A stretch of DNA of 64,000 nucleotides from the NCBI GenBank assembly GCA_000004695.1, contig CM000152.2, forward strand, positions 2,528,001-2,592,000, given 5' to 3'. A program made the position numbers and the translations under genes. Positions within the stretch are counted from its first letter, which is position 1, and the number at the start of each line of letters is the position of its first letter. The notes beneath the pieces were generated by a model. It did no database searches. It saw nothing but the letters and a program-made list of their open reading frames with translations, and was not told where the DNA came from. Below are positions 12,030 to 17,740 of the stretch, in pieces. The DNA comes from Dictyostelium discoideum. Taxonomy: Eukaryota.

Positions 12030-13910
12030 TTATGTTTTTTTATTATTAACAATTATGAAATTATCATTAATGTGAGGAATTTTTCTAAAAAATAAACAAT
12101 TAATTGGATCATCTCCATTTTGAACAATACGAGTATTTATTTCGTATCCATTCTCATTTTTAATATAATAGGTAGAGGTATTAATGATTTTATCATTAAC
12201 AATTGAGTCTACTTCACATTCAATGAAATGATTCTCTATTTGATTTATTTTTATTTTAACTTGTTGAGCTGATGATGAATTTGGAGCCATTGGACTATAA
12301 TCTGGGAATATTATATAATAATCGTCTTCATTATTTGAGTTTTTAAATATAGTTGCTGAATTTATTGATATTATTTGATTATCGTCATCAAGTGAAATCA
12401 TTGGTTTAATTTTATTTATTGGTTCTTTTGTAGTTTTAATTGCTGTAGTTGTTGTTGTCGTTTTTGGTGAATTTAATTCTCTATTTTCATTTTGTTTAAT
12501 ATTTTGTTGTTGTTGTAATTGTTGTTTTATTTGTTCCAATTGTTGTTGTTGTTGTTCTAATTCTTTTTGTTTTTGCTCCAATTGTTTTTGTTGTTGTTTT
12601 ATTAGTATTTGATTTCCTGAATTTGTTTTTTTCAATAATTCCATTTCTCCCCTTATTGTGTTATTAATATTATTTAAACTATTATTTTTTAATCTATATT
12701 TCTCAATTGTTGCATCAATAATTAGATTCTCTTTTCTACTAGTGGCAACTCTTGATATCATTTTATTTGAAGGTGGTGGTGGTGGTGGTGGAGTAAAGGT
12801 TGTTGTTGTTGTTGTGGTAGTTTTTGGAATTTGTTTTGGTTGAGTTTGTTCTTTTTCTTCTGTATTGGTAATAGATGATCTTAATTTAATTTCATTTGAA
12901 GTTGAAGTTGAACTTTTTATGTTACATATTTTCCCATATATTTGATTTAAAGTATACTTAAATTGACCTGACTTGTAAATCTCTGAGGCAATTATATTTT
13001 TTGGTTTGTTTGGAGTTTTCATTTTTTTATATATTTCTAAAAGCATTTTAGAATCTTCTTCACTCCAAATCAATTTCCTCTTTTTTTCATTTTGTTTATT
13101 ATTATTATTATTATTATTATTATTATTATTATTATTATTATTATTATTATTATTATTATTATTATTATTATTATTATTATTATTATTATTATTATTATTA
13201 TTATTATTATCATTATTATTATTATTATTTATTATTTTATCTGGATTACAATATTTTAATCCACATTTATCAAAATAAAATTTCCAATCTTCATTAAAGA
13301 TTTTATCTTTTGAGGTAAATATGAAAGATCCACCATCGATTGCAGGTTTTCGTGGAGGATAATTATTTAATATGTATGACGATCCTTTTTCAAATTTAAT
13401 TTCAATTTCTAAATCTTTGTTTATTAGTGTTTTGATTACTTTTACTGATGTTATATGTTCATTAGGTATTTCAATATCAACGATTTTATTTAATTCTGTT
13501 GAAATTCTAAATATTACCCTTTCTAAACAAAAAATGATTGGACCATTCATATTTAAATATCTAAAAGATGTTTGACCATTTTCTTCACTTGAATCTTTTT
13601 TTAATTTTTGTCCCTCTTCTATTTTAATTATAATAATAGGAATTTCTCCTCCTAAACATCCATTTGAATAATATCCACCATTAAAATCTTTAATTGGAGA
13701 TCTATATTTGAAATTTTCCGATTGGATACCATCAACATTTTCATCATCTTCATTTTCATTCTCTCCATCATAGTAGTAAATATTGTTATCATTTATAGAG
13801 AGTATATTATTATTATTATTATCCTCTTCACTCTCTTCATCACTGGTAATTTCAATTTCATCTAAACTAGATCCCACTTTATTTAATTCTTCAATTTTTC
13901 TTTTTGACAT
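12030..13910 (-). CDS. Lineage-specific family member 1 (626 aa): acidic N-terminus, Myb/SANT-like basic motif, poly-N, Q-rich coiled-coil, conserved C-terminal domain
   Basis: Uninterrupted ORF. It shares with 14369..15877 the motif KRK..IWSEEDS..L.EI(Y/F) (Myb/SANT-like), a QQQ/LEQ coiled-coil region and a C-terminal domain of about 115 aa (ISINSATI.K..N.EDD.Y.IFPDY...FI.C.V.S...IINTS.YYIKN.DG..IN...GD..I.CL...KIPHI.D.FIIVNNKK). It also has an extra N-terminal region of about 200 aa. Confidence 0.6.
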   Translation of the reverse strand: MSKRKIEELNKVGSSLDEIEITSDEESEEDNNNNNILSINDNNIYYYDGENENEDDENVDGIQSENFKYRSPIKDFNGGYYSNGCLGGEIPIIIIKIEEGQKLKKDSSEENGQTSFRYLNMNGPIIFCLERVIFRISTELNKIVDIEIPNEHITSVKVIKTLINKDLEIEIKFEKGSSYILNNYPPRKPAIDGGSFIFTSKDKIFNEDWKFYFDKCGLKYCNPDKIINNNNNNDNNNNNNNNNNNNNNNNNNNNNNNNNNNNNNNNNNNNNKQNEKKRKLIWSEEDSKMLLEIYKKMKTPNKPKNIIASEIYKSGQFKYTLNQIYGKICNIKSSTSTSNEIKLRSSITNTEEKEQTQPKQIPKTTTTTTTTFTPPPPPPPSNKMISRVATSRKENLIIDATIEKYRLKNNSLNNINNTIRGEMELLKKTNSGNQILIKQQQKQLEQKQKELEQQQQQLEQIKQQLQQQQNIKQNENRELNSPKTTTTTTAIKTTKEPINKIKPMISLDDDNQIISINSATIFKNSNNEDDYYIIFPDYSPMAPNSSSAQQVKIKINQIENHFIECEVDSIVNDKIINTSTYYIKNENGYEINTRIVQNGDDPINCLFFRKIPHINDNFIIVNNKKT

Positions 13911-14368
13911 AATTGCGGTATACTATTATTATTGCTAAAAACAAAAAAAAAAAAAAAAAAAAAAAAAAAATTTTTTCATTTTTTTTTTTTTTTTGTTCAT
14001 GCAATGAGATATTTTGAAAAAAAAAAAAAAAATAACTGAAAAGATTTTATTTTAATAAATCTAATATTTTTATTTGTTTTTTAAAAAATAATAAAAAAAA
14101 AAAAATAACTATTATTAAGTTTTTAAAAGTTTGTTTTTTATTATTAAACATTATAAAAATTTATGGGTTTCTAAATAAACATATAATTAATTAAAAAAAA
14201 AAAGTGAAATTTATTAATTAAATTCCACCTAAGTTGAAACTTCAATTTTTTATTTTTATTTTGTTGTAATTTTAAAAATAGGAAATCTTTTTTTTTTTTT
14301 TTTTAAAGATTTGATTTGCTTTTTTAATTTTTTTTTTTTTTTTTTTTTCTTTTATAATAATATTATTA

Positions 14369-15877: not shown

Positions 15878-16569
15878 AATTTTGTGATGGTTGTTGTAAT
15901 GAAAACAAAAAAAGGAAATGAAAAAAAAAAAATATGAAAAAAAAAAAAAAAAAATAAAAATAAAAAATGAAAAAGTAAAAAATTCAGTTAATGTCTAGAT
16001 CGAATTTAATAATTTTTAGATTTAGATTTAACAGAATTTTAAGGTACAGGGAACAAAAAAAATTAAAAAAATAAAAATATTTTTTTATTTTATTTAATTT
16101 TTATTATTTATTTTTTTATTTGTTTTTTATTTATTTAAATTGGGCCTACAATAATATTTTTAATTAATTATTTTTTGTTAATTTTTTATTTGTTTATTTT
16201 TCAAAAAATATTTTTTATTTGACCCACTCACCCACATAACATTCTCTCTACAATTAGATATGACATTATCCACCATTGATTATTTACAACATAAAGAGAA
16301 TCTAGATACAACACTGCTACCACAGTTTTTTACAAAAAAATTGAACAATATTAATGTTTTATAAAAAAAAAAAAAAAAAATTAGAAATTAAATTAAAATT
16401 TCACTGGAATTGAGCGATTATAATTTTTTAATTTTTTTTTATATTATATTGAAATTCAAAAAATAGGAAATCTTTTTTTTAAGATTTAATTTTCTTTTTT
16501 ATTCATTTAATTTTTTATTTTTATTTATTTTGTTTTTTTTTTAAAAAACATAATTATTATTTTTTATTA

Positions 16570-17740
16570 TTTACAATTATAAAATTGTTATCAATTTCAA
16601 GAATTTTTGAATATACTAAACATTTAATTTGATTATTTCCATTATCAACAACTCCATTAGTAATTTCAAAACCATCCATATTTTTAATATAATAAACGGA
16701 AGTATTAATGATTATTTCATTAATAAATGATTCTACTTCACATTGAATGAAATCACTCTCTCTTTTAATTATATTTATATTAACTCTTTTAGAGTATTGT
16801 ATTACTGATGATGATAAATAAATTTGATGCCATTTGACTAAAATCTGGAAATATTATATAATAATCATCTCTATTATTTGGATTTTTAATTACAATTGCT
16901 GAATTTATTGATATTATTTTATTATCATCAAGTGAAATCATTGGGTAAATAAATTTTTATTTATTGGTTTACTTGTAGTTTTTATTGTTGTTGTTGTTGT
17001 TGTTGTGGCTGTGGTTTCTGATTTATTTGTATCATGCCAAAGTTGATACTGGTGATTTAATTTTTGATGTTCAAGCAATGTCTTTTGATGATTCTGAATT
17101 TGTGGTTTTAATTTTTCATTTGATTCTTTAATTTTTTCTTTAATTTTTTCTTTAATTTATTTGTTTTTGATGTTGTTGTTGTTGTTGTTGTTGTTGTTGT
17201 TGTTGTTGTTGTTGTTGTTGTTGTTGTTGTTGTTGCTTTTGTTGTTGTTGTTGTTTTTGTTGTTGTTGTTGATCTAATTCTTTTTTTTTTTCTTTTAAAT
17301 TATTATTCTCTTTTACAACAAATTCTTTATTCCATGATTTAATTTCATTTTTTCTAACTAAAAATTTTAATTTTAAATTTTGAATTTTTGATTTAATTTG
17401 TGTCGATGTAAATTTAAATTGATTGGTTTGGAATATATCAGAGGAAACTGAATCTAATGTTTTTTGGTTCTTTTTCCATAATTGATTTATATAGTTTCCA
17501 AAGTTTTTCTGTATCTGAATTACTCCATATACGATTTTTTCTTTTACCAATTATATAATTTTCACCATCTTCATCATTTTCTTCATCGTTTAATTCTCCT
17601 TCTTCATCTTCTTCTTTATCATAATTTAATACCCCAAGATATTGAACATCATTATCATCATCTTCATCATCCTCCATTATGAATTCATCATGGTTTATAA
17701 AAATTCCATCTTCTTCATATTTTCCAATTGTACTTGCCAT
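16570..17740 (-). pseudogene. Decayed third paralog of the 12030/14369 family, with at least 3 frameshifts
   Basis: The N-terminal ORF 17438..17740 (...KRKNRIWSNSDTEKLWKLYKSIMEKEPKN) runs into a stop. The homologous continuation (SDIFQTNQFKFTSTQIKSKI, matching SEIYKSGQFKYTLNQIYGKI in copy 1) is in another frame (ORF 17152..17550). The shift maps to the A6 run in GAACCAAAAAACATT; removing one A restores the frame. The C-terminal domain region 16570..16990 is recognisable at nucleotide level (for example IIFPDFSQMASN.., SDFIQCEVESFINEIIINTSVYYIKNMDGFEI) but is split over three frames with in-frame stops. Confidence 0.6.

Follow-up and report, generated by a model that had tools for sequence, protein, structure and literature searches.

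The locus and its three genes

We analysed a stretch of 64,000 nucleotides (nt) of Dictyostelium discoideum AX4 (GenBank assembly GCA_000004695.1, contig CM000152.2, positions 2,528,001 to 2,592,000 of the forward strand), hereafter the window, which contains an array of three paralogous genes on chromosome 3. The three genes, copies 1 to 3, lie head to tail on the minus strand and are flanked by a dehydrogenase gene on one side and a proteasome-chaperone (PAC1-domain) gene on the other (Table 1). Copies 1 and 2 are intact, copy 3 is a recent pseudogene, and the array as a whole is probably old, with 3' parts that were later homogenised between neighbouring copies. The window is strongly AT-rich. 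The open reading frame (ORF) at 18062..18949 (minus strand) is identical to the D. discoideum AX4 protein DDB_G0279783, a short-chain dehydrogenase.

The similarity between the copies is far above chance. In copy-against-copy tblastn comparisons with a low-complexity filter, the C-terminal ~125 amino acids (aa) match with E values of 1e-36 to 1e-18, blastn gives 73-77% identity across 436-896 bp, and a repeat search finds three-copy families of 300 nt and 113 nt, spaced 2.2-2.35 kb apart. The protein alignment shows a shared build with an acidic N-terminus, a basic patch and an "IWSxxD" segment, a glutamine-rich helical middle and the C-terminal ~125 aa. These results confirm the head-to-tail triplication with a common architecture proposed earlier from the DNA letters and their translations (the sequence-only reading). 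The common architecture holds for the shared parts; copy 1 contains in addition ~165 aa (aa 63-225) that are absent from copies 2 and 3. The extents proposed for copies 1 and 2 were correct, and copy 3 was found to reach down to 16557 rather than 16570.

In agreement with the sequence-only reading, the similarity of copies 2 and 3 continues into their 3' flanks. The blastn block that joins them (14241..15106 versus 16427..17271) extends ~128 bp beyond the stop codon, and the local alignment of the two flanks (14241..14368 and 16427..16556) scores 77, compared with 35.5 +/- 4.7 for shuffles. Copy 1 does not have this flank.

Tracts of AAT (poly-Asn) and CAA (poly-Gln) repeats are found within the three genes at 13070..13240, 14990..15130 and 17165..17270. 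Between strains they vary in length by 3 to 84 nt, and in the intact copies these changes never disturb the frame. An exact look-up in the protein collection did not find the products of copies 1 and 2, and a literature search on the identifiers of the neighbouring genes and on the new assemblies gave nothing useful.

Table 1. Features of the array and its surroundings. Positions are those of the window; aa numbers refer to the copy 1 protein.
Feature	Position	Strand	Description
Copy 1	12030..13910	-	intact single-exon gene, one ORF, 626 aa
Copy 1 N-terminal domain (aa 63-225, ~165 aa)	13236..13724	-	predicted beta-rich; absent from copies 2 and 3
Copy 1 basic patch and Myb/SANT-like segment (aa 276-335)	12906..13085	-	sub-threshold Pfam matches, predicted helices
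Copy 1 long helix, putative coiled coil (aa 385-477)	12480..12758	-	single helix predicted by AlphaFold2 (AF2), predicted local distance difference test score (pLDDT) about 88-93
Copy 1 C-terminal orphan domain (aa 500-626)	12033..12413	-	
Copy 2	14369..15877	-	intact single-exon gene, one ORF, 502 aa
Copy 2 basic patch and Myb/SANT-like segment	15308..15490	-	aligns with copy 1 aa 276-329
Copy 2 C-terminal orphan domain	14372..14758	-	58-59% identity to copy 1, 74% to copy 3
3' flank of copy 2, common to copy 3	14241..14368	-	blastn block
Copy 3	16557..17740	-	pseudogene, five ORF pieces in alternating frames
3' flank of copy 3, common to copy 2	16427..16556	-	same blastn block and local alignment
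Copy 3 lesion 1	17460..17465	-	2-nt deletion in A run, inside the SANT-like segment
Copy 3 lesion 2	17158..17159	-	junction of a 2-nt deletion, directly after the poly-Gln tract
Copy 3 lesion 3	16951..16955	-	5-nt insertion (AATTT), start of the C-terminal domain
Copy 3 lesion 4	16818	-	1-nt T insertion within the C-terminal domain
Split copy 3 models, L001:9199..9790 and 10001..10385	~17152..17743 and 16557..16941		automated annotation of GCA_054883475.1
tRNA-Ser(AGA) gene	11790..11871 (flanks 11700..11960)	-	~160 bp 3' of copy 1
Related 5'-truncated ORF tails (candidate TRE3)	10990..11634 and 9528..10343	-	downstream of the tRNA-Ser gene

Related loci in other genomes

Four related loci were reached via neighbouring or homologous proteins. 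They come from a second D. discoideum assembly (L001, GCA_054883475.1), which is 99.8% identical to the window over 11 kb, from "D. cf. discoideum" (L002, GCA_054859205.1), from a divergent lineage labelled D. discoideum (L003, GCA_054859355.1) and from the sister species D. citrinum (L004). The position of the array between the same two flanking genes is kept in four genomes. All three copies are intact in L003, where the orthologues of copies 1, 2 and 3 comprise 611, 528 and 424 aa, respectively. Synonymous divergence (dS) of the neighbouring dehydrogenase gene amounts to 0.31 between D. discoideum and D. citrinum and to ~0.1 among the three lineages of the D. discoideum complex.

For L003 and L002 against AX4, the dS of the dehydrogenase gene is about 0.08-0.13, which is far above the usual within-species level and suggests deep cryptic lineages. 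The automated annotation of GCA_054883475.1 contains an 878-aa model at L001:13028..15897 (~window 11045..13914) that fuses copy 1 with the adjoining tRNA/TRE region, and it presents copy 3 as two genes, of 173 aa and 111 aa, with an invented intron. The public protein models of this assembly at copies 1 and 3 are artefacts.

Inactivation of copy 3

Copy 3 is a genuine recent pseudogene in the AX4 lineage. Four small insertions or deletions (indels) break its frame, and in a four-way alignment it differs from the orthologue by -2, -2, +5 and +1 nt at these breaks. The orthologue in L003 (L003:11244..12518) is an unbroken ORF of 424 aa, and copy 3, translated with its frame corrected, aligns with it over the full length. 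All four lesions are present in the second D. discoideum assembly, which across copy 3 differs from the window by one CAA unit and nothing else. L002 and L003 are alike in being intact at each of these four sites, which places the origin of the lesions in the AX4 lineage. At lesion 1, the run of A residues has six members in the window and likewise in L001, seven in L002 and eight in L003. Introns are excluded as an explanation of the breaks, because the lesions are indels of 1-5 nt and the sequence is collinear with the orthologue.

Compared with the L003 orthologue, 4 of the 11 indels in copy 3 are out of frame. The ratio of nonsynonymous to synonymous divergence (dN/dS) of the frame-corrected sequence is 0.33 (confidence interval (CI) 0.20-0.57) with no in-frame stop; hence most of the divergence of copy 3 built up under constraint, and its inactivation is recent.

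The sequence-only reading had taken copy 3 for a fresh pseudogene, and the same four lesions in L001 together with the intact orthologue in L003 bear this out. They also exclude the caveat that a single-base homopolymer sequencing error could mimic the first break. This break does lie in an A6 run, at 17460..17465 and thus ~60 bp from the proposed position near 17520, and it is a 2-nt deletion. Further breaks are present as expected, and the total is four frameshifting lesions, not three.

Selection on copies 1 and 2

Selection was assessed by comparing AX4 with L003. The dN/dS is 0.14 for the neighbouring dehydrogenase, 0.43 (CI 0.25-0.73) for the whole of copy 1 and 0.92 (CI 0.55-2.0) for the whole of copy 2. 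Within copy 1, the N-terminal domain is the most constrained segment, with a dN/dS of 0.125, and the C-terminal domain has a value of 0.70; for the C-terminal domains in general, the values between strains are 0.7-1.2. All 16 indels in the two genes are in frame (9 in copy 1 and 7 in copy 2). If the observed number and spectrum of substitutions is placed at random, 4.6-5.5 premature stops are expected, and copies 1 and 2 would be free of them with a probability of 0.003 and 0.008, respectively. Because all indels are in frame and the absence of stops is this improbable, the open frames appear to be selected. Copies 1 and 2 are, judging by these patterns, maintained genes with a loosely constrained amino-acid sequence.

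Domain organisation and predicted function

When the segments with the basic patch and the IWS motif were compared with Pfam in isolation, all four paralogue sequences matched GeBP-like_DBD (E 1.4e-4 to 3.3e-3) and two of the four matched Myb_DNA-bind_4 (E 4e-4 and 2.7e-3; best score 21.2 bits, cut-off 27). Myb_DNA-bind_6, MADF and Myb_DNA-bind_3 were each matched by a single segment, below the gathering score. For copy 1 the matches are GeBP-like_DBD (E 1.7e-3) and Myb_DNA-bind_6 (E 6e-3), both below the gathering score, and for copy 2 GeBP-like_DBD (E 1.4e-4) reaches 22.9 bits with a cut-off of 29.5. Full-length proteins gave nothing meaningful in Pfam, with low-complexity noise and no Myb/SANT-type model at E <= 1. 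An AF2 model of full-length copy 1 predicts helices at residues 284-297, 304-313 and 321-329 (pLDDT 73-82), in line with the three helices in ~50-60 residues expected of a Myb/SANT-like domain; Foldseek of this full-length model against the PDB returned no match at E <= 0.001. In an alignment of six sequences, a Trp in helix 1, an Ile and a Phe in helix 2 and a Q-I..K-I pattern in helix 3 are invariant, and Trp occupies the first position only. The consistent sub-threshold matches and the three predicted helices lend some support to the Myb/SANT-like motif named in the sequence-only reading, at scores that stay short of the gathering cut-offs.

The C-terminal domain is predicted to be beta-rich in the model of full-length copy 1 (pLDDT about 58) and all-beta when modelled alone (pLDDT 61, predicted template modelling score 0.57). 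It has no match in Pfam, its profile finds nothing significant among the PDB sequences, and Foldseek against the PDB gives no match at E <= 0.001, so that, as in the sequence-only reading, it could not be assigned to a known family. The N-terminal domain of copy 1 has no match in Pfam or among the PDB sequences either, and the AF2 model has low confidence across it. A possible origin of the N- and C-terminal domains of copy 1 by internal duplication was rejected, as hhalign shows no relation between them.

An exhaustive HMMER search with the profile of the C-terminal domain against 1.84 billion (1.84e9) representative proteins gave three matches, namely copy 1 of L003, a protein of 142 aa from the syntenic locus of D. 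citrinum and a fragment (40 aa) of AX4 copy 3. By this search, the domain appears to occur at this one locus only, in D. citrinum and the D. discoideum complex, in agreement with the lineage-specific family proposed before.

The architecture makes a dimeric nuclear DNA- or chromatin-binding factor the most likely product. In such a protein, the basic KRK patch would be a putative nuclear localisation signal, followed by one divergent three-helix Myb/SANT-like domain of the GeBP/trihelix/MADF type; the glutamine-rich long helix would form a putative coiled coil that dimerises the protein, and the orphan beta-rich C-terminal domain (~125 aa) would bind a partner.

History of the array

Two copies, both of them decayed, occupy the syntenic site in D. 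citrinum. Copy A retains an intact N-terminal ORF of 280 aa; its SANT-like segment most resembles that of copy 3, and its C-terminal domain is degenerate. Copy B contains several stops and a frameshift and matches copy 1 including its 3' flank. Copy 2 is without a counterpart in D. citrinum and in L002. In L002, copy 1 has moreover an internal deletion of ~0.8 kb and frameshifts, and copy 3 has a frameshift of its own and a deletion in the C-terminal domain. The sequence-only reading of a partly decaying family is thus correct for copy 3 in AX4 and extends to the broken or lost copies of L002 and D. citrinum.

The two ends of the genes differ in apparent age. The dS between paralogues is 0.21-0.36 in the C-terminal domain, whereas it is 0.8-1.3 in the SANT part, where the estimate is imprecise as it comes from ~30 synonymous sites of a very AT-biased gene. 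A dN/dS comparison among the copies, which had been proposed as a check, gives 0.6-0.9 for the C-terminal domains. In a neighbour-joining tree of the C-terminal-domain DNA, the copies of the D. discoideum complex stand apart from both D. citrinum copies (bootstrap 0.82), and groupings by position have a bootstrap of 0.00. The C-terminal domain of copy 3 is a mosaic: in its 5' part, 27 of 40 informative sites agree with copy 1, and in its 3' part, 22 of 27 agree with copy 2; the maximum chi-square permutation test of the breakpoint gives p = 0.0012. The clustering by species, the mosaic in copy 3 and the similarity of the non-coding flanks of copies 2 and 3 argue for gene conversion at the 3' end. 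The C-terminal domain, described earlier as conserved, would then be similar between the copies partly because it is young.

The proposal of a recently expanding family was not supported. Two copies are already present at the syntenic site in D. citrinum, and the dS of the SANT part (0.8-1.3) exceeds that of the neighbouring gene between the two species (0.31). The young look of the copies is limited to the 3' part, where the pattern points to gene conversion. "Recently expanding" should give way to the reading of an array that is old, has undergone gene conversion in its 3' parts and has lost copies repeatedly.

The neighbouring tRNA/TRE region and mobile DNA

The tRNA-Ser(AGA) gene next to copy 1 was found in the AX4-like assemblies only; ARAGORN detects none in the syntenic loci of L002, L003 and L004. 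In L003, the region 17150..17300 reads GATATCTAAAAATT directly followed by TAAACATATTTTT, an apparent empty site for the tRNA gene. Relative to this site, AX4 has ~115 extra bases that contain the tRNA and are bordered by an AAAAA(A)TT repeat, and the tRNA-Ser(AGA) gene looks like a lineage-specific insertion. The two 5'-truncated ORF tails downstream of it share motifs such as HQKGRNTLFRFFSR and NLIGII.HQLW.IICHKLF; in Pfam, one of them has a sub-threshold Forkhead match and there is nothing else. TRE3 elements insert ~100 bp downstream of tRNA genes (PMC5006619), and the ORF tails, by their typical position, are candidate TRE3 sequences. As with the tRNA gene, the TRE fragments occur only in the AX4-like assemblies.

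Different DNA occupies the same intergenic gap in other lineages. In L003, the stretch from copy 1 to the PAC1-domain gene contains a GC-richer insert of ~0.55 kb (L003:17570..18100) with similar 'ATTAGT(G)TATACATTT' motifs on either side. Neither the window nor L001, L002 or L004 contains a 40-nt probe sequence taken from this insert, which could represent a small mobile element or else a gene for a non-coding RNA. In L002, the gap contains a pogo/Tigger-type DDE_1 transposase ORF (L002:16387..17288; Pfam E 2.5e-15), which, in an automated annotation, is joined to what remains of copy 1 in a model of 620 aa.

The hotspot noted in the sequence-only reading is thus real, and its suggested link to the gene family was not upheld, as the tRNA and TRE sequences are limited to AX4-like assemblies and the array is older. 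Because the hotspot is younger than the array and lies outside it, we regard their adjacency as incidental.

Discussion

The locus is probably a tandem array that predates the split of D. discoideum and D. citrinum, belongs to a taxonomically restricted family, and has since been shaped by gene conversion at the 3' end and by birth and death of its members, with copy 3 as a pseudogene. The 3' parts of the genes (the C-terminal domain and, in copies 2 and 3, ~130 bp of flank) would have been homogenised between neighbours once D. citrinum had split off but before the lineages of the D. discoideum complex parted. Copies would then have been lost independently in several lineages, and in the AX4 lineage copy 3 would have been disabled very recently by the four frameshifting indels. 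Copies 1 and 2 would still be selected for an open frame while their protein sequence changes fast.

Several points weigh against parts of this account. The independence of L001 from the window is deduced only from differences in several homopolymers, one CAA unit and two substitutions, and the high dS of the SANT part shares the imprecision mentioned above. For copy 2, a dN/dS of 0.92 taken alone fits neutrality. The matches to Myb/SANT-type Pfam models all fall short of the gathering score, the threshold for membership, and the profile of the SANT alignment has no match among the PDB sequences or in a large protein database. The model of the C-terminal domain is of medium confidence (pLDDT 61, from a four-row alignment), so that the missing fold match is no proof of a new fold. 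In a word-indexed search, the C-terminal domain of copy 2 had one match and the N-terminal domain of copy 1 and the SANT alignment had none; this search is incomplete (it missed P0005 in its own collection), and its negatives are weak.

If the triplication were recent and the 5' halves had diverged fast through relaxed or positive selection, neither gene conversion nor an old array would be needed. The high dN/dS throughout (0.43-0.92 between strains and 0.6-0.9 for the paralogue C-terminal domains) and the ~30 synonymous sites behind the SANT-part dS are compatible with this explanation, and the lack of a copy 2 counterpart in D. citrinum or L002 means that at least one duplication could be young. 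We nevertheless consider it unlikely, since the SANT part exceeds the C-terminal domain 3-4 times in synonymous divergence, too, the site is occupied by two copies in D. citrinum (A nearest to copy 3 in the SANT part, B with the 3' flank of copy 1), and the C-terminal domain of copy 3 is a significant mosaic of copies 1 and 2. Little credence is given to the idea that no copy is functional and that the array consists of decaying ORFs which are by chance still open in some strains. It would accommodate the values for copy 2 (0.92) and the C-terminal domains (0.7-1.2 between strains), as well as the fact that every copy is broken in D. citrinum and that copies are broken or lost in L002, but it conflicts with the 4.6-5.5 premature stops expected at random (probability of none 0.003-0.008), with 16 of 16 indels in frame, with the dN/dS of 0.125 in the N-terminal domain of copy 1 and with the three intact ORFs in L003.

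The genes might also be borne by or derived from a transposable element, for example as a Myb-like accessory protein of the PIF/Harbinger type. Myb/SANT-like families include transposon-derived members, the proteins have weak Pfam matches to such families, and the adjacent intergenic gap contains mobile DNA in every lineage examined. This origin was rejected as very improbable: in the exhaustive search the C-terminal domain was found at one locus and not dispersed, the repeat search detected no terminal inverted repeats besides poly-A/T tracts, there is no transposase inside the units (the DDE_1 ORF of L002 is outside the genes and of the pogo type), and the array sits between the same two genes in four genomes. 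That copy 3 is a working gene, with breaks that are sequencing or assembly errors or short introns, is scarcely credible. Three of the four breaks do lie in or beside short A or T runs, and one automated annotation spans the last break by an intron (P0004). Against this, the identical four lesions recur in the second assembly, the intact orthologue is collinear over every break and leaves nothing that could be spliced, the bridging intron of P0004 deletes conserved residues, and copies 1 and 2 and the neighbouring dehydrogenase all read through despite their many homopolymers.

The locus is an ordinary but clear instance of gene birth, shuffling and death, and its importance is modest; no general view is altered by it. 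The D. discoideum genome has many orphan genes, tandem duplicates and pseudogenes. The value of the locus lies in the combination, at one locus and in four related genomes, of duplication, gene conversion at one end, fast evolution under selection for an open frame, and independent losses. In a genetically tractable organism, it moreover gives access to two domains, one of ~125 aa that is uncharacterised and one of ~165 aa that is constrained and without relatives. A more far-reaching reading, which we regard as a long shot, is that of a conflict-driven DNA-binding family whose C-terminal module, or perhaps whole gene, was born or diverged past recognition in the ancestor of D. discoideum and D. 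citrinum. If true, its targets could be, for example, mobile elements, centromeric repeats or self/non-self recognition, and it would account for the kept open frame, the near-neutral protein change, the gene conversion and the repeated losses.

The kinds of system that the array represents are known already: Myb/SANT-like factors, and tandem families that evolve by birth and death. As in plant GeBP/Storekeeper (PF04504), trihelix/GT (PF13837) and MADF (PF10545) proteins, a basic patch is followed by a ~55-aa segment with an invariant Trp in helix 1, three helices are predicted, and all paralogues give weak but consistent Pfam matches. GeBP and trihelix proteins have a long helical region after the DNA-binding segment, and a comparable region lies downstream of the putative DNA-binding segment here. 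Unlike in these families, no model is matched at the gathering score, Ile, Phe or Tyr stand in place of Trp at the second and third aromatic positions, orphan domains are present (the beta-rich C-terminal domain and, in copy 1, the N-terminal domain), and the range comprises two sister species groups.

With tandem families under concerted evolution, the array shares a converted tract that groups by species and not by position, discordant divergence of the two gene halves, the mosaic in copy 3 and a tract that runs into non-coding flank. It differs from them in that only the 3' third of each unit is affected and that the tracts are old (dS 0.2-0.36), with strain orthologues now closer than paralogues. 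Finally, although its intact allele comes here only from a deeply divergent lineage (dS about 0.1), copy 3 resembles the lineage-variable unitary pseudogenes, in which small frameshifting indels have disabled a gene that is intact in a related lineage and past constraint is still visible.

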